NCBI GenBank assembly: GCA_040753015.1
Contig: JBFMHM010000005.1
Span: 14,730 to 78,729 of the forward strand
DNA: 64,000 bases
Source of the DNA: Candidatus Omnitrophota bacterium
GTDB taxonomy: Bacteria; Omnitrophota; Gorgyraeia; Gygaellales; JBFMHM01
Reading direction: 5' to 3'
The notes below the pieces were generated by a model. That model had not been told where the DNA came from and did no database searches. It was given only the letters and a program-made list of their open reading frames with translations. Shown here in pieces: positions 18,666-61,332 of this stretch. Position 1 is the stretch's first letter; every line of letters starts with the position of its first letter. A program made the position numbers and the translations under genes.

Positions 18666-20033
18666 CTACTCATTTTGGGTTAAAATATAACTGTTAATTA
18701 ATTTATGCGGCCGATAAGACATTTTTACTTTCTCTAAATTACTAATCCCTGAATCATCCATTACATTTATAAATTTATACATGGTTAGTTTTTTACAAAA
18801 TTGCCAAAAAATAAACTGAGCAAGGCCTTTGATCTCTAAATCGGTAATTTCTGCAAAAATACAGAATGTATCTTTGTTTATCGGATAGCCAAAAGAATAT
18901 GCTTTTATTTTACCATTTCCACCCGAGGCGGATCCGCCTTTGGCGTAAATTTTTACAACATAACCATTCATCACAAGTTTAGCAAAATTCTTCATTAAAA
19001 ATTCATGCAGGATAAGATTATCCTTGATCATCATACAATACACATCATCTTTATTGAATTTTAACTGCCTATTACCTGACCAATTTTTATATAAACTAAT
19101 GGCTTCCTTTGTATATTCTTTGTTAAATGGCATAAATTCATAATTATAATTTTTCAAAAAATAATTCAATGCTGACCTTTTAGATTTAAATTTATCGCCT
19201 CTTAATTCAATCATATCCTTTGTGGCATATAAATATTCTTTAAATTTTGGTTTTAAAAAATATTGTGGCCTGTCGGTAGAGACGCAATTAATCATTTCTC
19301 TACAACCAAATCCATCTTCAATATTTTCTATTCTAGATACTGCTTTATTTTTATTAACGCTATTCATAATTTCAAAACACTTTTCTATTGTTCCAATATC
19401 GATTTTTTCCCCTAGCGGAAAAAAATTCATAAAGCAGCTACGGCTATCTTTAAAAAATATGCATAGGTTAGCATTAATAAAACAATAGGTGATATCATAC
19501 AAACATTTCCAAAGAAAAATGTTTTCAAATGAGTAAGCTGAAAGAGTATATTTAGAAATTTTAAGATAGCTATTTATTAATTTCTTATCCCGAATAGAAA
19601 GATTAATTAGTTTAGTATCAATATTAACTTTATCTAAAAAAATTAATTCATCTTTTGGGTATTCTTTAATAAAACCGGGGTTATCGAGAATAAATTTTTT
19701 GTTTTTGCTAGATAACAAGTACTTTACTAGGCCATCTGTATATGATTTTAAATTTAATTTACTAATATTTTCCTCAATGAACAAACATAATTTATGCAAT
19801 GCAATGTAGACTTGATTTTCTCTTTTTGCTAAAACAAAAGGGTATATTTTACAATCAAGCGGCCGTCGTGGATAAATCTTGCATTTATTCGTCTTAATAT
19901 CCAAATGCGGACACACATATAAATCTTTATAAACATTTGGTTTTATTTTATAAGGAAGCCAAACAGTATTTATATCATGAAATCTGCAGCACCCAAGGCA
20001 GGCAAGGCAAAATTTTGAAGAAACAAAGCGCAT
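18666..20033 (-). CDS. Hypothetical protein with an N-terminal YkgJ-type Cys-cluster (CxxCxxCC) domain fused to a large uncharacterised C-terminal domain
   Basis: CLACLGCCRFH...CPHL...CKIYPRRPLDCKIYPF Cys pattern of the UPF0153/YkgJ zinc/iron-chelating domain. The remainder is unassigned. Confidence 0.4.
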   Translation of the reverse strand: MRFVSSKFCLACLGCCRFHDINTVWLPYKIKPNVYKDLYVCPHLDIKTNKCKIYPRRPLDCKIYPFVLAKRENQVYIALHKLCLFIEENISKLNLKSYTDGLVKYLLSSKNKKFILDNPGFIKEYPKDELIFLDKVNIDTKLINLSIRDKKLINSYLKISKYTLSAYSFENIFLWKCLYDITYCFINANLCIFFKDSRSCFMNFFPLGEKIDIGTIEKCFEIMNSVNKNKAVSRIENIEDGFGCREMINCVSTDRPQYFLKPKFKEYLYATKDMIELRGDKFKSKRSALNYFLKNYNYEFMPFNKEYTKEAISLYKNWSGNRQLKFNKDDVYCMMIKDNLILHEFLMKNFAKLVMNGYVVKIYAKGGSASGGNGKIKAYSFGYPINKDTFCIFAEITDLEIKGLAQFIFWQFCKKLTMYKFINVMDDSGISNLEKVKMSYRPHKLINSYILTQNE

Positions 20034-21051: not shown

Positions 21052-21068
21052 AATTGTCCTCCATTATA

Positions 21069-21150
21069 ACCGCTAAAACGCAAAAGTTGCTAAAACGCAA
21101 AGATCAAATTTTGCGGTCTTTGCGGTTACAATTTTAGTGCTTTTGCGGTT
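21069..21150 (-). promoter_or_regulatory. Array of five related 9-mers (2x AAACGCAAA, 3x TTTGCGGTT) in the pstB-phoU intergenic region
   Basis: gctaaaacgcaaa at 21071-83 and 21089-101. ttttgcggt at 21109, tttgcggtt at 21119, ttttgcggtt at 21141. Confidence 0.5.
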
Positions 21151-21913: not shown

Positions 21914-22687
21914 TTATCCAAATTTTCCTATAATATAATCATTTGTCCGAGAATCATTTGGAGCAGTAAATATTTTTTCTGTTTTATCTACTTCAATAAG
22001 CTCCCCACTTAAAAAAAACGCAGTTCTGTCACCTACACGCGCTGCCTGTTTTACATTATTTGTTACTAAAACTATTGTGTATTGTTTTTTTAGCTCTATC
22101 ATTGCCTCTTCTACTTTTGCGGTTGAGATAGGATCGAGCCCCGAGCATGGTTCATCAAACAAAATCACTTCGGGCTCTACTGCTAAAGTCCGTGCAATAC
22201 AAAGCCTCTGTTGTTGGCCTCCCGATAATTTAAAAGCTGACTCATTTAATCTATCTTTTACCTCATCCCAAATGTATGCCTGTTTTAAAGATTTTTCGAC
22301 TATACTTTTTAATACATTTATATTTTTTTGGTCATGCATTCTAACACCATAGGCAATGTTATCAAATATGGATAACGGCAAAGGTAAGGGTAAAGCAAAA
22401 ACCATACCGACCTTTTTACGCACAAGTTCAATATCTAATTTTGTAATATCATTATTGTCTAATTTAACCAATCCCTGCATCCGAAAATTTGAATGTAATT
22501 CATTTAAACGATTAAGCATTCTTAAAAATGTGGTTTTGCCGCTGTTTGATGGGCCAATAACACTTAATATTTCATTTGCCTCAACGCACAAATTTAACGC
22601 CCTTAAGGCATGAATTGCGCCAAACCAAATATTGAGATTTTCTATGCTAATTTTTCCGCCTAAGGGCGGAATTTGATAACTCACCAT
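21914..22687 (-). CDS. pstB: Phosphate ABC transporter ATP-binding protein PstB (copy 1), in tandem with copy 2
   Basis: Walker A GPSNSGKTT, signature LSGGQQQRL, Walker B ILFDEP. Confidence 0.9.
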   Translation of the reverse strand: MVSYQIPPLGGKISIENLNIWFGAIHALRALNLCVEANEILSVIGPSNSGKTTFLRMLNRLNELHSNFRMQGLVKLDNNDITKLDIELVRKKVGMVFALPLPLPLSIFDNIAYGVRMHDQKNINVLKSIVEKSLKQAYIWDEVKDRLNESAFKLSGGQQQRLCIARTLAVEPEVILFDEPCSGLDPISTAKVEEAMIELKKQYTIVLVTNNVKQAARVGDRTAFFLSGELIEVDKTEKIFTAPNDSRTNDYIIGKFG

Positions 22688-23529
22688 TTCTTTTTTTTCC
22701 TAAATTGATAGCGAATAATTATTGCAATCAAATTCATAAATAATACTATTGTAAGCAAAACAAACGCGGTGCCATAACGAATTTTCTCATCAACATTTGG
22801 CACTTGAGTTGAAATTACATATAAGTGGTAAGGCAGCGCCATCGCTTGATCAAATATTGAGTGAGGAAGCTTGGGTAGATAAAATGCTGCTACTGTAAAA
22901 AGAATTGGCGCGGTTTCACCTGCTGCACGACCTAAGCCTAAAATTGTGCCGGTTAATATACCAGGAACTGCATTAGGCAAAACAATGTGCCTTGTTGTTT
23001 GCCACTTGCTTGCGCCAAGAGATAAGCTTACTTCACGAAATGATTGCGGCACACTTTCAAGCGCCTCACGGGAGGCAGTAATAATTATTGGTAAAATCAT
23101 AATTCCAAGTGTAAGCGACCCAGAAAGAATTGATGCACCAAATTTAAAGAACACAACAAAAATTGCCAAACCAAACAATCCATATACGACTGACGGCACG
23201 CCTGATAAATTTATAATCGCAAGTTTAATCAAACGCGTTAAAACATTTTCTCTAGAATATTCGCTTAGATAAATTGCTGACATAACGCCAATAGGAAGAG
23301 CAAATAATATTGCGCCAGTTACTAAATAAATTGTCCCAACAATCGCTGGGAAAATTCCTCCCGCGCGCATACCCTGGCGCGGAATATCAAAAATAAATTG
23401 CCAATTTATTGCCGGTAGGCCTTTTTGTATAATAACAACAATGATTAAGCCTACGGGAATAACTATAAACAAAGTTGCAATCAGTAAAAAGAAAAAAGCA
23501 ATTTTCTGGCTGCGTAAGGAATTTTTCAT
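22681..23529 (-). CDS. pstA: Phosphate ABC transporter permease PstA
   Basis: Polytopic permease with an ABC transmembrane type-1 EAA-like loop, located between pstC and pstB. Confidence 0.85.
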   Translation of the reverse strand: MKNSLRSQKIAFFFLLIATLFIVIPVGLIIVVIIQKGLPAINWQFIFDIPRQGMRAGGIFPAIVGTIYLVTGAILFALPIGVMSAIYLSEYSRENVLTRLIKLAIINLSGVPSVVYGLFGLAIFVVFFKFGASILSGSLTLGIMILPIIITASREALESVPQSFREVSLSLGASKWQTTRHIVLPNAVPGILTGTILGLGRAAGETAPILFTVAAFYLPKLPHSIFDQAMALPYHLYVISTQVPNVDEKIRYGTAFVLLTIVLFMNLIAIIIRYQFRKKKKW

Positions 23530-36068: not shown

Positions 36069-36086
36069 ATAAATACAGAGATAAGA

Positions 36087-36173
36087 TACAAGAATTAAGA
36101 TTTAAGAAAATCTTAAAACAAGATCTATGAAACAAAACTACAAGAATTAAGATTTAAGAAAATCTTAAAACAA
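36087..36173. repeat. Two perfect 35-bp direct repeats (tacaagaattaagatttaagaaaatcttaaaacaa), each containing a hairpin, immediately flanking the four-helix-bundle gene
   Basis: Copies at 36087-36121 and 36139-36173, identical by inspection. Each has the internal inverted repeat ttaagattt/aaatcttaa. Confidence 0.85.
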
Positions 36174-36200
36174 AACCGCCAAACATAAGAACTAAAAAAT

Positions 36201-36566
36201 TCATAAATCAGTTTTTAAAGTAAGTACTATTTTACTTAAAATTTTAATAACTTCAATATTTTCTTTTTCAATGCCTAATAACGGTTCGCTATTCGAAATT
36301 ATCTTGGCATCTTTAAAAATCTGTAGCCAATTATCAAATTCATAACTCGAATTGAGTGCAATCGTAAAATAAGATTCCTTATGTCTAATACTTGAAGCAC
36401 TATTACCTTCGGCAATGTTTGCTCCAATCGAAGTTGCTGCACCTAAACATTGATCAATAATTTTTGAATATTTTTGACTACAGTTATTCAGTAAATTAAT
36501 TATTAAAAGAGCATTTTTATGAGCCTTCTGCCAAACTATTAATTTTCGATATTGCGGCACATTCAT
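36201..36566 (-). CDS. Four-helix-bundle protein (TIGR02436-type; the family found inside 23S rRNA intervening sequences)
   Basis: LIVWQKAHKNALLI...QCLGAATSIGANIAEGNSASS...ESYFTIALNSSYEFDNWLQIF matches the family signature (S-I-x-A-N-I-A-E-G). Confidence 0.75.
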   Translation of the reverse strand: MNVPQYRKLIVWQKAHKNALLIINLLNNCSQKYSKIIDQCLGAATSIGANIAEGNSASSIRHKESYFTIALNSSYEFDNWLQIFKDAKIISNSEPLLGIEKENIEVIKILSKIVLTLKTDL

Positions 36567-36579
36567 AATCTAAGTTTTA

Positions 36580-36670
36580 AGATTTTTGTTTTCTTAAATC
36601 TTACTTCTTAACTTTTGAGTTTAAAAGTTTTTGATTTTATCTTAATTCTTAAATCTTATTTCTTAATTCT
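36580..36670. repeat. Hairpin-rich repeat block related in inverted orientation to the 36087-36173 repeats, on the other side of the four-helix-bundle gene
   Basis: Contains taagattt...aaatctta hairpins and agaattaaga / agatttaagaa segments, the reverse complement of motifs in 36087-36173. Confidence 0.6.
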
Positions 36671-36677
36671 GTATTAA

Positions 36678-36751
36678 TGGGCGCTAGAGGACTCGAACCC
36701 CTGACCCTCTCGGTGTAAACGAGATGCTCTAACCAACTGAGCTAAGCGCCC
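36678..36751 (-). tRNA. tRNA-Val (anticodon UAC)
   Basis: Manual cloverleaf: acceptor GGGCGCT/AGCGCCC, D arm GCTC-AGTTGGTTA-GAGC, anticodon stem TCTCG/CGAGA with loop TTTACAC, T arm AGGGG-TTCGAGT-CCTCT, discriminator A. CCA is not encoded. Confidence 0.85.
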
Positions 36752-36995
36752 TAACATCTACACTTTCATTTAAAAACTTTCTACCAACTCCGCTTTTAAG
36801 AAAATTTTCTCTTTTTCGCGCTTCTGTAATGTTTAAATATTGCTCTTTATAAATTAATTCGAAAGGACCATTTTCTTTAGTCCATTTATTAGAACCATAA
36901 TTATGTTGTTTAAGTCTATCTTCCGGTAAATTCTTAGTACTGCTTATATATCTCTTACCGTTACGTAAACTTTTTAAGACATAAACATAATACAT
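36729..36995 (-). CDS. Small GIY-YIG nuclease-domain protein; its 3' end overlaps the tRNA-Val gene
   Basis: YYVYVLKSLRNGKRYISSTKNLPEDRLKQHN...GPFELIY...EARKRENFLKSGVGRKFL, the GIY-YIG motif pattern. Confidence 0.7.
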   Translation of the reverse strand: MYYVYVLKSLRNGKRYISSTKNLPEDRLKQHNYGSNKWTKENGPFELIYKEQYLNITEARKRENFLKSGVGRKFLNESVDVRALSSVG

Positions 36996-37014
36996 GCTCT
37001 AACCTCCACCGGAG

Positions 37015-37034
37015 GCGGATCAGCCTCAGGCTGA
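37015..37034. repeat. Small palindromic dispersed repeat, copy A (core gcggatcagcctcaggctga)
   Basis: Core hairpin tcagcct-c-aggctga. The same 20-nt core recurs at 56292-56311 and 58666-58685. Confidence 0.75.
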
Positions 37035-37051
37035 AACTGAGCTAAGCGCCC
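37035..37051 (-). other. 17-nt duplicate of the tRNA-Val 5' end (GGGCGCTTAGCTCAGTT), an orphan fragment upstream of the GIY-YIG gene
   Basis: aactgagctaagcgccc is identical at 36735-36751 (inside the intact tRNA-Val) and 37035-37051. Confidence 0.7.
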
Positions 37052-40980: not shown

Positions 40981-41088
40981 TTTCTTAATATGGTATGGCT
41001 TACTTTTTCATAGTATACCATATTAGCATATTTGTGCAATAAATTTTATTTCCTCGGAAAAATCTGTTGCAGCTGTGCTTGTGGGATG

Positions 41089-41122
41089 TTTGCGGTAAGT
41101 ACTATTAGGATATCGCGTAGAT
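41089..41122. repeat. 34-bp direct repeat, copy 1 (tttgcggtaagtactattaggatatcgcgtagat); it begins a diverged duplicate of the 3' end of the giant gene
   Basis: Identical 34-mer at 41909-41942. In the giant gene's frame the copy-1 region reads ...NLRDILIVLTANIPQAQLQQIFPRK*, against the giant's C-terminus ...HLRDILIVLTANLSQIQLRQIFLRKN*. Confidence 0.8.
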
Positions 41123-41143
41123 TTAGATCGACAGAATAATAAT

Positions 41144-41497
41144 TTATGCTCTATTCTCTTGATTTATAATTTGTTGAACATCTTTCTGAAGAGCTGGAAT
41201 TTTTTTAACAACAACATCCCAGACAATATCATAATCTACACCAAAATAATCATGTATTAATACATCTCGCATACCAGCGATTGCCTTCCACTCTATATTG
41301 GGATATTTATGTTTTAATTCGTCGGGGATCTTTTTTGTAGCTTCTCCAATAATTTCTATACTACGGACAAAAGCCCTCTGTAATGTTTCATTGCAAATAA
41401 ATTTATCCCTATCTAATTCAATTGACTTATCTGTAAGATACTTTGTTTCTTCTAAAATATGAAATAGATATTCAATTCCGGGAAATGACATATTCAA
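41144..41497 (-). CDS. HepT-like HEPN-domain toxin (DUF86)
   Basis: Rx4-6H HEPN motif [10 protein letters not shown]. The gene overlaps the upstream mntA-like gene. Confidence 0.7.
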
Positions 41498-41777
41498 CTT
41501 CTCTCATAATATTTGGTTTAATATAAGGGCTCAATGATTCATTGGTTACTAATTCAATACGTTGCTTAAGTAAATCCTCTAATAAAAAAGAAAGATGCAC
41601 AAAATTATCAAATGTTTTTTTATCACGATAAAATTCTACCAACAGATCTATATCGCTCTGAACAGTTTGTTCTTTTCGCACAAACGATCCAAATAAACCA
41701 AGCTTTTTTACACCAAAAGTCTTAATTTTATCTTGATTATCTCTGATAATCGATAAAACATCTTCTTTGCCAAACAT
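41472..41777 (-). CDS. MntA-like nucleotidyltransferase antitoxin
   Basis: [23 protein letters not shown] minimal nucleotidyltransferase motif (GS...DxD). Confidence 0.8.
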
Positions 41778-41862
41778 AATATTTCACCTCTTTTAAGATT
41801 CATTATAATCTTTATTTGAAAAAATTAAAGATATTTTTTAATTTGGTTTTTTTATTCAAAAA

Positions 41863-44800
41863 CTAATTCTTCCTCAAAAAAATCTGGCGTAACTGAATTT
41901 GTGATAAATTTGCGGTAAGTACTATTAGGATATCGCGTAGATGTAGGTTAGTGGGAATATATTGTTCCTCTTCTTGGCGCAATATTTTTGCGATAGAAGA
42001 AATTGTTTTCTGCTTATCTGTAAGATTCACTTCAATTATATTCGTAACATCCGCGCTGGTTAAATTATCAATTGCCTGCGTCACAATTGGCAAATTTGTA
42101 AAATCTATACCACCTAATGGTGAGCCTGTCGAACCATCAATTCCGCCTGGCTCTTCGGGTGCATTAGCTACGGTTGTATCTCTTTTCGGCAAAGTGATTG
42201 TGTAAACTAAACTATTTTCGGCTTCGTCGTAAACTACATTTACGCCTCCTCCGTGCATTTGAATAATTTGCCATAATAAATCCATGCCAAGCCCTTTGCC
42301 TGCGTCTTCATCAGAATAATCTGTAATTTCGCCAGTTTGTTCTTTTGTTAAAAACATATTTTGCCGGTTAAAATGCGAGTTAGTTTCAGTTAATCGTCTA
42401 AGTTCTACACTTGGCGCAACTTTTTTGCATTTTACAGTTAACGTGTATCCAGAGCCGCTTTCTTCTAAACTAATTTCTGGCTTTTCACTGCCATGTTTTA
42501 TAGTATTACTAAAAATCCTTGATGTAGCAAAACTAAATAAATCTAGATCAGCATAAATATTTTGACTGCTTAAATCATCTGAATAAACAACATCTTTTCT
42601 TTCTACTCTGCGCCCACCTGTATGATATGAACTTAAATTATTAAATACAGAATCAAATAATCCACCTAAAGGAATTTTAGTTTTTTCAACTTCGTCACTG
42701 AATAACTTCTTTAAAAACGATAAACTTGTTCTTAATTGCTGGCTTTTGGTTTGCATTTTCTCATACTCTGCAATAAATCTTGTATCATTTATGTGAGATT
42801 CGCGCTCTGTTTCAATAATAGCTTCGATTTTATCGCAAGTATCTACTAAGCCATCAATTGCTTTGATTATTTCGGCTTTATACTCTGCTAAATACTCGAC
42901 AACATTTTTATCAATTAACATTGCATGTTTAATGGCGAGAAAATAGTCGTAGTAATTGTTAAATTTTTCTATAAGGGGATTTCTATCATCCCATTTCGAA
43001 TAATCTACTCTTAGAACAAGAGTATCATATTCTGCACGTAAAACAGCCATAATATGCGCAATTGGCATTTGGCCATGTCCTAATACAATGCGTAGACCAT
43101 AAAACACGCGCTCAAAGTCTAATTGTTCCTGGCTATAACTTTCACCAGATTGTAAATAAGCAATTATGCGTCTTAAACCTTGATTATATTGTTCTTTTAA
43201 ACTACCGGAAAGATGCTTTTCCTTGACATATTCAATCAATTCAGTAACTGTTGTTGGCTTATCCTCCTCACCACAAACACCCTCTCGTATTAGCCTTTCT
43301 CGCTCTTCTTCACTAAATCCAGCGGCTTTTAAAATATGGGCTTTTTGCCTAATTTCTTCTGGCGTGTATGCCTTATCTGGGTTGGGATGTTTAGCAGGCC
43401 TGCCATCTGGGTCAATTACATAACAATGCCCTTTCTCTTTACCAACCAAATGCGCTTTGACAATTGCATCAAGTTCTGTATCGCTGACCGTTCTACCTAA
43501 AACTTCCTCCGCGCGGAGTTTCAAGGACAAGCGTTCTAAGGTATTTATAACTTCATTTCCTACAATCACCCTCGATGTATACATTTTTCCTTCAAGATCT
43601 TGGAAGTAATCATGAAGATGGACCATGGTATCCGTTCTTGGATGTATCTCGTTTCCTAATAAACATGCATATAATTCATTAAGTATAAGATCTATGTTAT
43701 TTGGATTATATCCACCCACTGTATTCATAATTCTGATAAGCTTATATTGTTCATCAGGATCTACCTTATCCCATATTGTTTTGACACCATCTCTTATAAA
43801 AGGCTCAGTAAAATAAAGGCCATGGCGAAACTCATGGCGTACTACTTGCCCTCGCTCAGGAGAATCTTGAGCAACTGAGATAATAGCAATTGTTTTTGAG
43901 TGGCTAGGGACATATTTGCCATTCGTATATTTCATAAAACCGAATCGCAATAAGTCATCTTTTATTTTTAATTCTGTATCATTTAAAACAATGCCTTTCT
44001 TTTTAGCTTGCGTATAGAATTTACAGATATCCTCAATTCTAAAATCATACCCTATACCTTTTTTTTCTTCACCTTTATCATATGCCTCTTTTAAGCGTCG
44101 ATCATCTAATACGTTGCCTGCATTCGTATCTGATTCGGTAAAAACAGACAGCCTAAAAAAGGCATCATCTTGAAGGCCTGTTGTTGCAAATTCAATATGA
44201 AATATATCTTCATCGCTGACCTGATAAAATTTATATTTGTGATCTATTGGTAAACTAAGTTTCTCCAACTCAGCGACACGTATACTTTCAATTCCATCTG
44301 GTTTTGTAATGTCTGAAGTTAGAGCAACTTCTACTCTTTGTGATACTCTTTGCTCTTCGGCTAATACTGGTTTATTTCCAATACTAATTCCCAAAAATAA
44401 CGCTAGAGGAATTAAAAAACTTCGCCATCTTCCAATCTCAAATAATCTTGAAGTAGAAACCGACGTAGCGCTTGGCATATTCGCATAACGCGTCGTTCCA
44501 TAACGTAAATTATACGCAATAGAACAAATCTCCTCTCTCGTCAATCGCTCTAATGGTTCCTTTTCTTCAAACCATACTGCTAATTGTTCTTCTTTTCTCA
44601 TATCAGAAACTCTATCATCAGAATCAAAAATAAAACCGCCACCGAGCCTTTTATTGATTTCTTGAAAAAAACCATAACCCTCATTCACTACCTTATCTGA
44701 ATCATAAAAAACACCGTGCATACCTATAATAATGTTAACTAAAGCATAATATGGCGTAATTTCGGCTTCGGCGTAACGCGAGGTACCTTCAGAATTAGAA

Positions 44801-55806: not shown

Positions 55807-56631
55807 TTATCCCTCCCAAATCAACTCTTTTATATCAAATACCGGGCCGTCGTGACAAATACGTTTTTGCCCTTTTGTTGTATTAATTACACAGGCAAGG
55901 CACGCACCAATACCACAGCCCATACCCTCATCTAAAGAAACTTGGCAATTAAGATTATTTACAGCAGCTATTTTCTGCAATGATTTAAGCATCGCATCTG
56001 GGCCACAGGCATAAATTCGATTGGCCGGTAAAAATTCTTTTAATAAATCTGTAACGCGGCCTTTAAACCCAAGGGTTCCATCGTCGGTAGCAATTCTTAC
56101 GTCGCAGCCTAAATTTTTAAACTCTTTCATACACAATACTTCATTTTTAGTTTTTGCCCCGATTAACACTATTGGCGTTTGTTTCATCTTTTGCGCCAAG
56201 AATACAAGCGGCGCAACACCAATCCCACCTGCGATTAGAATTGGTAATTGGTTATTGGGATTTGCTTTGTCATTGGTAATTTCCGCCTGAGGCGGATCAG
56301 CCTTTGGCTGAGGTGATTGGTAATTAAATCCTTTTCCAAGCGGCCCAATTACATCTAAAATATCACCGCTTGAGCTTTCGGATAAAATTTTTGTCCCACG
56401 GCCAACAAGCTCATAAAGTATTTCGATCTTACCACCTAAAATACGATGGATGCTTAAAGGCCTCCTTAACAATGGATCAAAACTTGAATTAATCTTTATA
56501 TGTAAAAATTGCCCCGGCTGGGCTAGCTTTGCGATAACAGAAGAATCTAAAATAAGTTTATAATAATTATTACAAACCCTAGTATTATCGATGATTTTTA
56601 TTTTTTTGTTTATTATATTATGTGAGTGCAT
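55807..56631 (-). CDS. pyrK: Dihydroorotate dehydrogenase electron-transfer subunit PyrK, carrying an in-frame low-complexity insertion
   Basis: FAD/NAD-binding fold. C-terminal 2Fe-2S Cys cluster CGIGACLACV...C. Extra segment SPQPKADPPQAEITNDKANPNNQ encoded by the palindromic repeat at 56292-56311 plus ATTGG repeats. Confidence 0.8.
   Translation of the reverse strand: MHSHNIINKKIKIIDNTRVCNNYYKLILDSSVIAKLAQPGQFLHIKINSSFDPLLRRPLSIHRILGGKIEILYELVGRGTKILSESSSGDILDVIGPLGKGFNYQSPQPKADPPQAEITNDKANPNNQLPILIAGGIGVAPLVFLAQKMKQTPIVLIGAKTKNEVLCMKEFKNLGCDVRIATDDGTLGFKGRVTDLLKEFLPANRIYACGPDAMLKSLQKIAAVNNLNCQVSLDEGMGCGIGACLACVINTTKGQKRICHDGPVFDIKELIWEG
56292..56311. repeat. Small palindromic dispersed repeat, copy B (gcggatcagcctttggctga), inside the pyrK coding sequence
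   Basis: Same 20-nt core as 37015-37034 and 58666-58685. Flanked by attggtaatt direct repeats at 56272-56281 and 56316-56325. Confidence 0.75.
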
Positions 56632-57720: not shown

Positions 57721-57757
57721 TTTTCTCCTCTCTGCAATTTTTGCGTTTTAGCGGTTA

Positions 57758-58574: not shown

Positions 58575-58646
58575 TGCGCCTGGCTGGAGTCGAACCAGCA
58601 CACCTGGCTCCGGAGGCCAGTGCCCTATCCATTGGGCGACAGGCGC
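58575..58646 (-). tRNA. tRNA-Arg (anticodon CCG)
   Basis: Manual cloverleaf: acceptor GCGCCTG/CAGGCGC, D arm GCCC-AATGGATA-GGGC, anticodon stem CTGGC/GCCAG with loop CTCCGGA, T arm GCTGG-TTCGACT-CCAGC, discriminator A. Confidence 0.8.
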
Positions 58647-58665
58647 GTAAAAATTTCCGCCAAAT

Positions 58666-58685
58666 GCGGATCAGCCTCTGGCTGA
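58666..58685. repeat. Small palindromic dispersed repeat, copy C (gcggatcagcctctggctga)
   Basis: Same 20-nt core as copies A and B. Lies between tRNA-Arg and the PHP nuclease gene. Confidence 0.75.
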
Positions 58686-58696
58686 AAAATTTTCCA

Positions 58697-59944
58697 TTAA
58701 AATAAATTTAGTTGTTCTTCTTTATTTGTTTTATTTTTTAATTTCTCTTGAATAAGGACTTGTATCTTGCCATATTCTCCGTCGTAACCTGGTTGTAGTT
58801 TAACAAGGCCAGCTCGTACAGCAATTATTGCTTTAGCTTGTTTTTCTGGTAAATTTTCTATTAAGTCTTCTTCACTTGCTTTAAGCAAGCAATTAAATTC
58901 TGTATGAAATTTTGCAATCGTATTGAAATATTCTTTTTCAACTGTTTTCGATTGCGGCGCAACATCTAAAACATCAGCAATAATTTCTTCTAAAGGAATT
59001 AAGTTTTTATAAGGAATAGAATTGTGGGGTATAAATCCTTCTGGCCTATCAGCAAGTTGATCCACTCTATTCATTACGCCAATTGTTAAAAGCCTCCCAC
59101 ACTTTGGGCAGATATTTTTGTGTTTTTTTGCCTCTTGCGGCGAAAAACACACTCCGCAATTTCTATGCCCATCAAAATGATATTTCCCTTCTTCAGGAAA
59201 AAATTCAATTGTATATAAGAAGCGTTTTTTATCCTTTGTTTTAAGCACATCCCTGATTGTCTTATAATTAAGTTCGCAGTCAAAGACATTTGCCTCACGG
59301 CCAATTTTTGCCGGGCTATGCGAATCAGAATTGCTGATTAGGGTGATCTTATCTAAAGCTGAAAGCCGCCAATTCATTTGCGGGTCGCTGCTAAGCCCCG
59401 TCTCGATAGAAAATATTTTTGGTGTCAGCTCTTCAAAACAATCTTCTAGCCTATCAAATCCTGACATTGAACCAAATACACTAAACCAAGGCGTCCAGGC
59501 ATGGCCGGGTATAACCATACAATTTTCATCGATATCAAAAACTAGCTTTGCTAGATTTTTTGCATCCATGCCAATTATCGGACGGCCATCACTAGTTAAA
59601 TTTGCGCCATATCTAATTAAGGCCTGGTTTATTTTTTCAACTATCTTAAAGCTAGGTGCAAAAATAATATTGTGAATTCGATAGGTTTTCCCGCGCTTGG
59701 AATAAATTGAGCTAATTTCAGCAGTTAGAATAAAATTTACGTTATTATAGGTAAACAGGCCATTATCCAGCGGCTCTAATTTTGATTTTAACTCTTGTAG
59801 CCAGAGATGGTGCGTAAAATCACCTGTGCCGATTAGTTGGATGCCTTTGATATTTGCCCATTTGGCAATATTTTCAATATCCATATCGCGGCTGGTTGCC
59901 CGCGAATATTTTGAGTGTATATGAAAATCAGCTATAAATTCCAT
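58697..59944 (-). CDS. PHP-domain protein of the endonuclease Q-like (TIGR00375) family, with a Cys4 zinc finger
   Basis: N-terminal ADFHIHSKYS PHP motif, further His/Asp metal ligands, CGVCF...CPKCG zinc-finger. Confidence 0.55.
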   Translation of the reverse strand: MEFIADFHIHSKYSRATSRDMDIENIAKWANIKGIQLIGTGDFTHHLWLQELKSKLEPLDNGLFTYNNVNFILTAEISSIYSKRGKTYRIHNIIFAPSFKIVEKINQALIRYGANLTSDGRPIIGMDAKNLAKLVFDIDENCMVIPGHAWTPWFSVFGSMSGFDRLEDCFEELTPKIFSIETGLSSDPQMNWRLSALDKITLISNSDSHSPAKIGREANVFDCELNYKTIRDVLKTKDKKRFLYTIEFFPEEGKYHFDGHRNCGVCFSPQEAKKHKNICPKCGRLLTIGVMNRVDQLADRPEGFIPHNSIPYKNLIPLEEIIADVLDVAPQSKTVEKEYFNTIAKFHTEFNCLLKASEEDLIENLPEKQAKAIIAVRAGLVKLQPGYDGEYGKIQVLIQEKLKNKTNKEEQLNLF

Positions 59945-61233: not shown

Positions 61234-61332
61234 TTACCCAAGCCCAAATAAATGTCCAATTATCCAATTTCAATATTTTTGGACAATTGGTTATTGGGAT
61301 TTTATTTGACATTGGGATTTGGTCATTTGTCA

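Follow-up and report, generated by a model that had tools for sequence, protein, structure and literature searches.

A 30-bp double hairpin in frame within pyrK of an Omnitrophota bacterium and its association with tRNA-nested GIY-YIG nuclease genes

The pyrK gene of a Candidatus Omnitrophota bacterium harbours a GC-rich palindrome that recurs elsewhere in the window, by which we mean the whole 64-kb stretch of DNA analysed here, and this raises the question of what the repeat is and how it came to occupy a reading frame. A preliminary description had recorded a 20-nt core, GCGGATCAGCCTNNGGCTGA, at 37015-37034, 56292-56311 and 58666-58685. These matches are exact, against an expectation of 0 in 100 dinucleotide shuffles with up to two mismatches tolerated, but the single hairpin described at the time falls short of the true unit, which measures 30 bp, reads TC[C/A]GCC-N3-GGC[G/T]GA twice, and folds as two adjacent GC-rich hairpins with stems of 6 bp and loops of 3 nt. 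We refer to it as the double hairpin (DH). Four copies, including a previously overlooked one (copy 2), are present in the window, whose GC content is 34%, and all have the same, minus-strand orientation (Table 1); the four sites have a 34-nt match in common where none is expected. The reading that we cautiously favour is that DH is a nuclease-linked palindromic mini-element, of which pyrK carries one copy.

Table 1. Features of the 64-kb window that bear on the double hairpin.
Feature	Position	Strand	Description
DH copy 1	56282..56311	-	In frame in pyrK; sense TCAGCC-AAA-GGCTGA TCCGCC-TCA-GGCGGA
DH copy 2	18918..18947	-	In frame in DUF2156/LPG_synthase_C + CxxCxxCC protein, ORF 18666-20033
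DH copy 3	37005..37034	-	Between positions 17 and 18 (D-loop) of partial tRNA-Val copy
DH copy 4	58656..58685	-	Intergenic; 11 nt past stop of ORF 58697-59944, 9 nt before tRNA-Arg
tRNA-Arg	58575-58646		Neighbour of DH copy 4
Lone hairpin TCCGCC-TAAG-GGCGGA	22655..22670	.	Gene boundary
Module: tRNA fragment, DH, GIY-YIG, tRNA	36678-37051	-	One such in window
Partial tRNA-Val copy	36994..37051	-	nt 1-17 at 37051..37035, nt 18-28 at 37004..36994, DH copy 3 between
Stand-alone GIY-YIG nuclease gene	36729..36995	-	88 aa, UPF0213 type; Pfam PF01541, E = 1e-12
Complete tRNA-Val (TAC)	36678..36751	-	Directly 3' of GIY-YIG ORF
pyrK, dihydroorotate dehydrogenase B electron-transfer subunit	55807..56631	-	274-aa ORF; Pfam DHODB_Fe-S_bind + NAD_binding_1
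Predicted peptide of DH-bearing pyrK, SPQPKADPPQAEITNDK	pyrK	-	Translation
Expanded PyrK linker, 90 nt	56236..56325	-	Degenerate (AATTACC)n heptamer array, DH between two units, + 22-nt segment
Heptamer-type AT-rich array, pyrB-pyrC spacer	61285..61320	.	31/36 nt match to pyrK linker 56246-56281

The predicted DNA fold of the unit has an energy of -11.6 kcal/mol (z = -5.6). A scan for structure only, run over 794 kb of low-GC loci, returned 74 perfect double hairpins as opposed to 0 in block shuffles, and nearly all of them belong to one sequence family. Among the collected copies 97.4% of stem cells are paired, a figure inflated by the palindromic consensus with which the set was gathered, and 45 cells have changed on both sides, a level matched by 0 of 500 shuffles. 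At stem position 3 a C-G pair has become A-T in 21 and 17 sequences; this co-change was not forced by the collection, the genome scan having permitted all four combinations. Such compensatory changes support two local hairpins in DH. Folding as one long hairpin or cruciform of 13 bp was rejected, as it scores worse than shuffles, and the two loops are not complementary to each other (129 matching positions versus 135 expected). The loops of the four window copies all differ and the stems are conserved, which fits old copies under structural selection, or with self-correcting stems, better than a recent burst.

Conserved stems with loops that vary freely even within one genome also accord with the idea that DH is mainly a selected structural signal, such as a bidirectional terminator or insulator, a stabiliser of mRNA 5' or 3' ends or a site for a conserved protein, which was moved by horizontal transfer or recombination and entered genes only by rare accident. 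Its proximity to tRNA and GIY-YIG genes would then arise because these are separate transcription units. Copy 4 lends itself to this idea, being preceded by a stop codon and followed by a tRNA; it is the only copy that a consensus scan flagged, weakly, as terminator-like. It has one mutated stem position, and pairing between its A/T flanks could create a three-way junction. A/T-rich flanks are likewise found at many intergenic DHs, and horizontal transfer between Patescibacteria and Omnitrophota is documented (PMC12455944). However, the consensus flank is a run of T on the 5' side and a run of A on the 3' side, whichever strand is read, the reverse of the hairpin and subsequent U-tract that mark a Rho-independent terminator. 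Selection at the RNA level on the sense strand was rejected, with no excess of G.T over A.C mismatches (9 versus 12), and Rfam returned no family for DH, neither in the window at the gathering threshold nor in 58600-58740 at E-values up to 10, where only tRNAs and noise were reported. In view of these results, and of the coding copies and tRNA spacing described below, we regard a primary signalling role as unlikely.

The effect of DH on a protein can be followed in pyrK, an essential gene of pyrimidine synthesis, the product of which matches a deposited Candidatus Omnitrophota PyrK at 100% identity. As the preliminary description had claimed, a core copy (at 56292) lies within an ORF with PyrK domains, and the Fe-S and FAD/NAD-binding motifs stay in frame: no variation affects the four Fe-S cysteines or the GPLG and AGG.G motifs. 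With the frame and the catalytic motifs kept on both sides, the gene is intact despite its insert. DH itself contributes exactly 10 codons, (P)QPKADPPQA(E), at residues 107-117 or thereabouts. An extra loop of ~23 residues, noted previously, does exist, but the remainder derives from units of the heptamer together with a 22-nt segment akin to 61285-61320. DH landed in the FAD/NAD interdomain linker, within an (AATTACC)n microsatellite. The direct repeats ATTGGTAATT at 56272-81 and 56316-25, positions which stand as originally given, had been taken to flank the insert; the same sequence is found a third time at 56240-49, where it belongs to a 7-nt tandem array (TRF 56239-56258). Because the heptamer array is present at the same spot in other Omnitrophota PyrKs, and without any DH in a further PyrK (P0020), these flanks are microsatellite units and not a clean target duplication, and we rejected them as a target-site duplication.

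Alignment with orthologues identified the PyrK segment as an insertion in a tolerant loop, since it is missing from the closest homologue (71% identity) and from L. lactis PyrK, and an AF2 model renders it as a low-confidence coil (pLDDT 56-79) between two well-predicted strands. An empty-site allele of this particular pyrK was not found; its 90% cluster has one member, so the insertion is deduced from orthologues of at most 71% identity. Loop length does vary among PyrKs, as it would if the segment were a native low-complexity loop with coincidental similarity to the repeat. Yet the segment is absent from the orthologues, the 34-nt match is common to four sites and the frame and motifs are intact on either side, while the presence of identical DHs in MAGs built by many projects with many assemblers, some of them from long reads, likewise opposes an assembly artefact; we give either explanation almost no credence. 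In Omnitrophota, this linker loop is a recurrent host of GC-rich palindromes, including those of the CCTGCC..GGCAGG family.

Insertion in frame is not confined to pyrK. Copy 2 adds 10 residues, YAKGGSASGG, at a beta-turn of the DUF2156/LPG-synthase-C protein, an insert missing from 60 of 60 aligned homologues, and the N-termini of an aminoacyl-tRNA synthetase and of UvrC are among the other hosts. Two of the four window copies are in frame in long ORFs, as are approximately half of those elsewhere, for which SAxGGSAxGG is the predominant reading. The three frames are used in proportions of about 30 : 8 : 4 or fewer, a bias that is the mark of a selection filter. As 30 bp is divisible by 3 and stop codons are absent from two or more of the three frames, DH yields short linkers at surface loops, either Gly/Ser-rich (SAxGGSAxGG) or Pro/Ala-rich (PPxADPPxAE), that the host protein tolerates. 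So high an intragenic share, with so strong a frame bias, is at odds with a structural signal that enters genes by accident. DH would, moreover, account for a puzzle that recurs in annotations, namely the GGSASGG and PPKADPPLAE peptides and the unexpected loop insertions of CPR, Omnitrophota and PVC proteins.

Copy 3 links the repeat to a nuclease gene. It belongs to a module that includes the only GIY-YIG gene of the window, the start codon of which overlaps the end of the partial tRNA-Val copy and the stop codon of which lies within the D-arm of the complete tRNA-Val. The GIY-YIG catalytic domain is present, as indicated by matches to PF01541, UPF0213 and SLX1; the protein is most similar to UPF0213 structures, its closest characterised relative is SLX1, and weak PHROG matches to homing endonucleases were obtained. 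Excision of DH in silico from copy 3 restores an exact 28-nt tRNA-Val prefix. This copy is near a tRNA because it sits in the D-loop of the partial tRNA-Val, at the 5' border of the GIY-YIG cassette. The suggestion that copies cluster next to tRNAs is correct as regards tRNA-Arg and tRNA-Val, both of which are nearby in the window, but it does not extend to the family in general, as a tRNA within 200 nt was found at only about 6 of 81 DH-selected loci, in all but one case by way of a GIY-YIG module.

The same arrangement was found in metagenomes. Among 80 loci picked by GIY-YIG protein similarity alone and scanned with a 3-sequence alignment, 21 showed a DH no more than 200 nt away from the gene, compared with only 3 DHs elsewhere in about 270 kb, and DH is enriched about 50-fold beside small GIY-YIG genes of the UPF0213/SLX1-like kind that lie within partial tRNA duplications. 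The remaining 59 of the 80 cassettes are without DH proper; among the 15 closest relatives, 12 have a DH within that distance, and at three loci (L124, L126 and L179) DH flanks the gene. A partial copy of the downstream tRNA, its break point interrupted by a GC-rich hairpin of the DH or other families (among them CCTGCC..GGCAGG), was seen in 34 of 43 cassettes, and both there and in the window the host gene is kept as a complete tRNA following the partial one. We conclude that DH is a junction element of SLX1-like (UPF0213) GIY-YIG cassettes nested in tRNA genes. These begin with a 5' tRNA fragment, which DH, lying in a tRNA loop, separates from a further 4-12 nt of the tRNA; the GIY-YIG ORF comes next and a complete tRNA last. 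Termination cannot explain a spacing of 4-12 nt from the truncation of many different tRNA fragments. The link between DH and the GIY-YIG gene is a correlation.

Intact tRNA copies provide empty sites, by comparison with which the DH insertion is exactly 30 bp long and without duplication. A flank logo of 101 DH sites gives T/T/Y at positions -3 to -1 and R/A/A at +1 to +3, i.e. a TTY:RAA-like step; by these alignments, DH inserts as a precise 30-bp unit at pyrimidine:purine steps (consensus tTT:AAa) with no target duplication. The lack of a duplication would equally suit filler or templated DNA, placed by host repair into double-strand breaks, stalled forks or slippage-prone AT-rich arrays, with other DH copies as the source for gene conversion or microhomology-mediated synthesis; no dedicated enzyme would be involved, and the GIY-YIG cassettes would merely make or mark break-prone sites. 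DHs and other GC palindromes are indeed found within heptamer and octamer microsatellites, and sites of the same kinds are used by several hairpin families that are not related to one another. Nevertheless, the unit is exactly 30 bp with defined ends at dozens of independent sites, and its orientation relative to the GIY-YIG gene is 14 : 1, which implies a directed process; we find filler DNA a rather improbable origin.

The preliminary description had likened the repeat to REP and RPE palindromes, an analogy that is apt for the in-frame copy in a tolerant PyrK loop and for behaviour, although DH is a member of neither family. With REPs it shares a GC-rich hairpin of 20-40 bp, many copies, the absence of target duplication, a flanked nuclease gene and uniform orientation. 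REPs, however, carry a GTAG or CGTC tetranucleotide at one end (PMC3733652), a tag found at neither end of DH, which has two hairpins instead of one, is intragenic in half of its copies and is partnered by a GIY-YIG rather than an HUH Y1 enzyme. Could it still be a REP-type element moved in trans by a RAYT or IS200-like HUH Y1 transposase encoded elsewhere in the genome? Its size, palindromic hairpins and uniform window orientation without target duplication are of this kind, and the DH-flanked gene at the three loci resembles a REPtron. But with a tagless, often intragenic unit, a GIY-YIG gene in the place of the Y1 transposase, and neither a Y1_Tnp domain nor a RAYT seen among the 20 small window ORFs scanned, we consider this very unlikely.

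RPEs insert in frame into unrelated housekeeping genes at fold-compatible positions (PMC10969869) and, like DH, thereby add a palindrome-encoded peptide at tolerant sites. Set apart by description, they measure about 100-150 bp (for the rejection of membership, about 150 bp versus 30 bp), encode a conserved peptide and occur in Rickettsia only, whereas DH comprises 30 bp (10 codons), is present in many phyla and is tied to the GIY-YIG/tRNA cassette; similarity in sequence would not be expected. MITEs (Correia, ERIC, QMITE) are also short non-autonomous repeats for which in-frame fusions are possible, but they span 50-500 bp and have terminal inverted repeats and target-site duplications, whereas DH has neither duplication nor internal unique sequence; MITE membership was rejected on the empty sites (intact tRNAs and homologues) without duplication and on the heptamer-array nature of ATTGGTAATT. 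The mitochondrial double-hairpin elements (DHEs) of Allomyces and Schizosaccharomyces have two stem-loops, lie in spacers and genes and hardly differ between species; mobility has been suspected (PMC10085805, citing Paquin et al. 2000). Compared by description, they are, like DH, GC-rich and composed of two adjacent stem-loops in an AT-rich genome; unlike DH, they are organellar, eukaryotic and variable in length, and no in-frame copies in protein genes are described in the text consulted (PMC10085805). GIY-YIG homing endonuclease genes that stand alone, such as those for T4 Seg proteins and the I-TevI family, resemble the cassette in being small ORFs in or beside a conserved gene, the function of which is preserved by a local duplication. 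The cassette protein has 80-95 aa and no DNA-binding domain and is nearer to UPF0213/SLX1 than to I-TevI, and the cassette differs from homing endonuclease genes by its junction, a GC-rich palindrome that is also solitary across the genome. One Allomyces DHE lies at the edge of an endonuclease-ORF insertion by which part of atp6 was duplicated, and this would be the closest parallel in architecture to the tRNA/GIY-YIG modules.

As to how a nuclease-linked mini-element might spread, GIY-YIG enzymes are not known as transposases. We propose that the SLX1-like nuclease would recognise or cut branched or cruciform DNA of DH and of tRNA genes, and that repair of the breaks, templated by other DH loci, would spread the cassettes as well as DHs that stand alone. 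The copy in pyrK and other solitary ones would then be products or relics of nuclease activity, and intergenic copies may have a secondary role as RNA or DNA structural signals. The 88-aa SLX1-like nuclease and the 30-bp double hairpin, or the tRNA gene, are thus a candidate enzyme-substrate pair. More tentatively, DH and sister palindromes (CCTGCC..GGCAGG) could be the cognate DNA structures of an unrecognised mobile class in Patescibacteria, Omnitrophota, PVC and other uncultivated phyla: cassettes of 80-95-aa SLX1/UPF0213-type proteins that home into tRNA genes, repair the tRNA by partial duplication and seed 30-bp palindromes genome-wide, including in frame in essential proteins. If this holds, these cassettes and DH would constitute a GIY-YIG counterpart of REP-RAYT and a general source of protein loop insertions in ultra-small bacteria. 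A causal link would also reveal a new means by which selfish nuclease genes survive inside tRNA genes and bring about differences in protein length. DH may be viewed as a cross-phylum analogue of the Rickettsia RPEs, elements that remodel essential proteins where genomes are streamlined. We found no description of the DH DNA or peptide in the published literature, including work on palindromes of CPR, Patescibacteria or Omnitrophota, on GIY-YIG with tRNA and on UPF0213/YhbQ.

The search for further core copies proposed at the outset was productive, with many found in MAGs of many phyla. The full 30-mer is present in 81 of 120 genome loci retrieved with a pattern covering the 3' two-thirds of DH only, and these belong to Patescibacteria, Omnitrophota, PVC, Bacteroidota and other MAGs, labelled as deposited and in some cases possibly misbinned. 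On this evidence, the family extends across many phyla and is not confined to the present genome, and DH may serve as a marker of horizontal exchange among co-occurring groundwater lineages. A phage origin was rejected, as 2.9 million viral contigs yielded only 12 stretches. Two phage-like contigs of ~87-94% DNA identity encode orthologous proteins with a full DH in one and a single hairpin in the other, at nearby but different positions, and a 173-nt indel between the two contigs ends 11 nt from a DH; the pair points to recent DH turnover. In the window, the lone hairpin at 22655..22670 is possibly a half-element.

The 20-nt core noted earlier recurs as exact matches at its three positions (none expected by chance), but repeat finding in the window gave a longer conserved unit and a fourth copy (see table). 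This unit, the double hairpin (DH), is 30 nt long and comprises two neighbouring hairpins (each with 6 bp of stem and 3 nt of loop); in pyrK it reads TCAGCC-AAA-GGCTGA TCCGCC-TCA-GGCGGA on the gene-sense (minus) strand, the strand that holds nearly all genes of the window, the GC content of which is 34%. Whichever strand is taken, DH as single-stranded DNA is predicted to fold as exactly both hairpins (-11.6 kcal/mol, z = -5.6) and, with its T/A flanks, as a three-way junction.

Window coordinates of the elements and genes discussed
Feature	Position	Remark
DH copy (repeat finding)	18914-18947	same orientation as other three
DH copy (repeat finding)	37001-37034	same orientation as other three
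DH copy (repeat finding)	56278-56311	same orientation as other three
DH copy (repeat finding)	58652-58685	same orientation as other three
DUF2156/LPG_synthase_C ORF	18666-20033	in-frame DH
24-nt TAACCGCTAAAACGCAAAAGTTGC	21067-21150 region	intergenic
23-nt tandem repeat	21107-21150	related to TAACCGCTAAAACGCAAAAGTTGC
Single hairpin TCCGCC-TAAG-GGCGGA	22655-22670	T/A-rich flanks; boundary of ORFs 22681-23529 / 21914-22687
39-nt inverted repeats	36072-36110 / 36630-36668	flank PF05635 ORF
Perfect 35-nt direct repeat	36087-36121 / 36139-36173	PF05635 region
PF05635 ORF, 121 aa	36201-36566	between tRNA-Val and tRNA-Asp
96-nt direct repeats	41031-41126 / 41851-41946	flank HepT/MNT pair; 77% identity, last 31 nt nearly identical
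HepT/MNT pair	41144-41777	beside 2089-aa ORF
TauE/SafE-like ORF, 119 aa	55446-55805	between pyrK and pyrD
pyrK	55807-56631	DHODB Fe-S and NAD-binding domains
7-nt array (TRF)	56239-56258	
ATTGGTAATT 10-mer	56240, 56272, 56316	only occurrences in window
TAACCGCTAAAACGCAAAAGTTGC, inverted copy	57734-57757	96% complementary, 36 kb apart; intergenic
pyrB-pyrC spacer	61234-61332	large imperfect palindrome

We demonstrate that this two-hairpin unit is conserved and spread across phyla. When one genome per GTDB species was scanned with GCGGATCMGCCNNNGGCKGA, yielding at least 120 loci, the full 30-mer was found in 81 of the 120 matches listed, even though the pattern left out both the loop and the 5' arm of hairpin 1; the remaining 39 were mostly chance high-GC hits. 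The suggested search for further copies, made here across genomes, gave the complete element at no fewer than 81 loci. By the labels as deposited, about 40 of the 81 listed belong to Patescibacteria/CPR (many classes), 4 to Omnitrophota and about 11 to Kiritimatiellae, Verrucomicrobiota or Lentisphaerae, with Elusimicrobia, Ignavibacteria/Bacteroidota, low-GC "Gammaproteobacteria", Deltaproteobacteria and others also represented. Some of the listed loci are located on contigs of 0.8-1.6 Mb. A structure-only scan of 794 kb gave 74 perfect double hairpins vs 0 in block shuffles. Stems in that scan were TCCGCC or TCAGCC almost throughout (more rarely CCAGCC, TGCGCC, CCCGCC or TCGGCC). In a set of 79 distinct copies, pairing holds for 97.4% of the stem cells and 45 cells carry changes on both sides, values reached by 0/500 shuffles; at position 3 of the stems, 57-59 sequences have C-G, whereas 21 and 17 have A-T, and mixed cases are almost absent. 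Folding DH as one long hairpin scored worse than shuffles and was rejected. The loop of the 5' hairpin is purine-rich and that of the 3' hairpin pyrimidine-rich, and mutual complementarity of the two, looked for in the DH copy set, was absent. In three Kiritimatiellae/Verrucomicrobia MAGs (loci L004, L018 and L091), DH lies inside a longer repeat, CATAGGAATTT-DH-CAATCCGT...GTCATTCCGAGCG..GAGGAATCTC, present in L018 as two near-identical copies 1.8 kb apart; hence, in PVC genomes DH may form one part of larger composite repeats.

DH inserts precisely as 30 bp, prefers Y|R targets and leaves no duplication. The flank consensus is tTT|DH|AAa (101 sites), and where an adjacent intact tRNA reveals the empty site, the flanking TT and AA are the target's own and exactly 30 bp have been added without duplication, as in the tRNA-Lys anticodon loop (CTTTT|AAGG), T-loops (GGTTC|GAATCC) and D-loops (TAGCT|CAATGG). 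Turnover on a short time scale is evidenced by two phage-like contigs (DNA 87-94% identical), the orthologous proteins of which (about 150 aa) have a full DH (FPPEADQPSAEK) on one contig and, at a nearby position, a single hairpin (QSAEGGES) on the other; 11 nt separate DH from the end of a 173-nt indel that lies beside an (AATTAGG)n array. Versions with one hairpin were further seen in tRNA fragments (L172, L173) and on one phage-like contig (L209), and the single hairpin of the window may be a half-element.

The element is also tolerated in frame. Among the matches listed, long ORFs contain about half of the copies, including the N-termini of an aminoacyl-tRNA synthetase (L097) and of UvrC (L115) and an 832-aa ORF with two copies (L061). 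Reading frames are strongly skewed, with SAxGGSAxGG encoded by about 30 copies, PPxADPPxAE by about 8 and RxRRIRLxR by 4 or fewer, the pattern expected if translated insertions are filtered at the level of the protein. Within the window, the DUF2156 protein reads VVKI-YAKGGSASGG-NGKIKA, and 60/60 aligned homologues have a clean 10-residue gap at this place, matching the 30 nt of DH exactly and showing no flanking duplication. The window PyrK is 100% identical to a deposited Candidatus Omnitrophota MAG protein encoded on a 91-kb contig. As had been claimed, its Fe-S and nucleotide-binding motifs are intact: in an alignment of 24 PyrKs the insert falls between the invariant GPLGxGF and AGGxG, and the four cluster cysteines are kept. 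Comparison with orthologues likewise bore out an insertion, since P0002, the closest homologue at 71% identity, falls short of the window protein by 20 residues in total and by 15 in the DH-bearing loop; this loop has about 10 residues in L. lactis PyrK (1EP3_B) vs 27 here. In the AlphaFold model (mean pLDDT 85), residues 99-130 are coil (block pLDDT 56-79) between well-predicted strands 91-98 and 131-135, and the segment is the linker joining the FAD barrel and the NAD domain. The TauE/SafE-like ORF matches only the C-terminal half of that exporter family; at L121, the locus of the closest relative, pyrK and pyrD directly overlap, which makes this ORF an additional insertion into the pyr operon.

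The ATTGGTAATT direct repeats noted on either side of the pyrK copy are present, but a third copy exists and all are units of a heptamer array, which rules them out as a target duplication. In sense orientation, the 90-nt linker reads AATTACC AATCACC [DH] AATTACC AATGACA AAGCAAATCCC AATAACC AATTACC AATTCTA. Heptamer arrays occupy the same loop in the DNA of three orthologues (protein identity about 55-71%): (AATTACC) x 5.5 and nothing else in P0020, (AATTACC)n on both sides of the 21-nt GC hairpin CTGCCTGGCCGGCAGGCAGGC in P0007, and an (AAAATCA)-like array in P0002. At least 8/120 PyrK orthologues have "RQAG"-type palindrome peptides in this loop, where GC-rich palindromes surrounded by AT-rich short-period repeats have thus landed repeatedly. 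Arrays of a similar kind lie beside DH in unrelated genomes (e.g. L086, L051, L040, L111, L115 and L117). Over 36 nt, the linker agrees with the pyrB-pyrC spacer at 31/36 positions (equal quality in 0/200 shuffles); that spacer contains two inverted AATNNCC-type heptamer arrays, the right arm being the match. Six Omnitrophota PyrKs (P0005, P0012, P0020, P0037, P0070, P0104) have palindrome-like peptide inserts, e.g. HRSQVTG...ATCDLR and LPRRQAGRSSGHQVT, in two further loops (columns 175-190 and 245-270 of PyrK alignment A1), and from these sequences several GC-rich hairpin families appear to colonise PyrK.

DH is tightly and directionally associated with tRNA-nested cassettes encoding an SLX1-like GIY-YIG nuclease. 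Copies had been described as lying next to tRNA genes; examination of the one beside tRNA-Val revealed that DH splits the tRNA-Val fragment of such a cassette, and removal of 37034..37005 gives back an exact 28-nt tRNA-Val prefix. Directly 3' of it is an 88-aa GIY-YIG ORF, the product of which matches UPF0213 structures (1ZG2, 1YWL) and next best SLX1, a structure-specific endonuclease; matches to homing-endonuclease PHROGs were weak and NCBIfam gave none. Homologues occur in 5 DH-selected genome loci, all beside a tRNA and 4/5 with DH within 18-127 nt. As an unbiased test, 80 metagenome loci were chosen solely for similarity to the GIY-YIG protein. In 21 of them DH, with 3 or fewer mismatches, lay within 200 nt of the gene, in most cases 9-46 nt ahead of its start or immediately past the downstream tRNA, vs only 3 copies elsewhere in about 270 kb, a roughly 50-fold enrichment; it was present in 12/15 closest relatives, and 57/80 loci had a same-strand tRNA within 200 nt. 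Asymmetric copies place the A-hairpin first on the GIY-YIG sense strand in 14/15 cases, as do the three asymmetric window copies. The cassette order is a partial 5' copy of the adjacent tRNA (34/43 cassettes having a downstream tRNA), a GC-rich hairpin breaking that copy in the D-, anticodon- or T-loop, 4-12 nt of tRNA, the ORF, whose stop codon can fall within the D-arm, and the complete tRNA. L124 and L126 keep a 3' partial copy too, tRNA(26-36)-DH-tRNA(37-76), with the cassette between direct repeats of about 51 nt centred on DH. Cassettes without DH have other palindromes at the junction, such as TCGGCC/CCAGCC-stem double hairpins or the CCTGCC..GGCAGG family; as the latter also occurs in PyrK loops, two unrelated palindrome families share both habitats. 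In L135 and L137, a longer structured sequence (ctgtgg...aacgcag...ggtgaac) apparently splits the downstream tRNA, not called by ARAGORN, just past its anticodon stem and could be a group I intron.

We propose that branched or cruciform DNA is the target of the nuclease, candidate substrates being the DH three-way junction and the tRNA gene, able to fold as a cloverleaf, and that repair copying from DH-bearing loci would spread solitary DHs as well as cassettes. The steady spacing of 4-12 nt from DH to the cassette junction resembles the mark of a nuclease that cuts a set distance away from a structure it recognises. Rival readings are a structural signal under selection, enzyme-independent templated repair, a REP/RAYT system, and coincidence or artefact. 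A simple selfish burst is disfavoured, as the window copies all differ in their loops yet keep their stems, pyrK has no known empty allele, and we know of no chemistry for GIY-YIG-mediated insertion.

We rate DH as belonging with palindromic mini-insertion elements. The proposed likeness to Rickettsia palindromic elements holds for in-frame insertion into housekeeping genes but not for size, about 150 bp vs 30 bp (PMC10969869). REP/RAYT systems (PMC3733652), a further rival, share size, lack of duplication and a nuclease gene flanked by copies, whereas DH differs in tag, extragenic placement and its GIY-YIG partner. Mitochondrial DHEs (PMC10085805) resemble DH in structure, being GC-rich double hairpins of AT-rich DNA that occur within genes as well as in spacers and are conserved across species, but are organellar. 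GIY-YIG genes are among those reported as transferred between Patescibacteria and Omnitrophota (PMC12455944). Full-text literature searches, incomplete in coverage, gave no description of DH or of a GIY-YIG/tRNA/palindrome module. That DH is, through the nuclease link, a new type of mobile system is a realistic possibility.

Other small units were seen in the window. The '23S rRNA intervening sequence protein' ORF (PF05635) with its repeats (36072-36668) looks like a second small cassette in the tRNA cluster of the GIY-YIG gene, and the repeats around the HepT-like RNase / nucleotidyltransferase (MNT) toxin-antitoxin pair suggest an inserted cassette. Judged by its two copies, TAACCGCTAAAACGCAAAAGTTGC is another dispersed intergenic motif.
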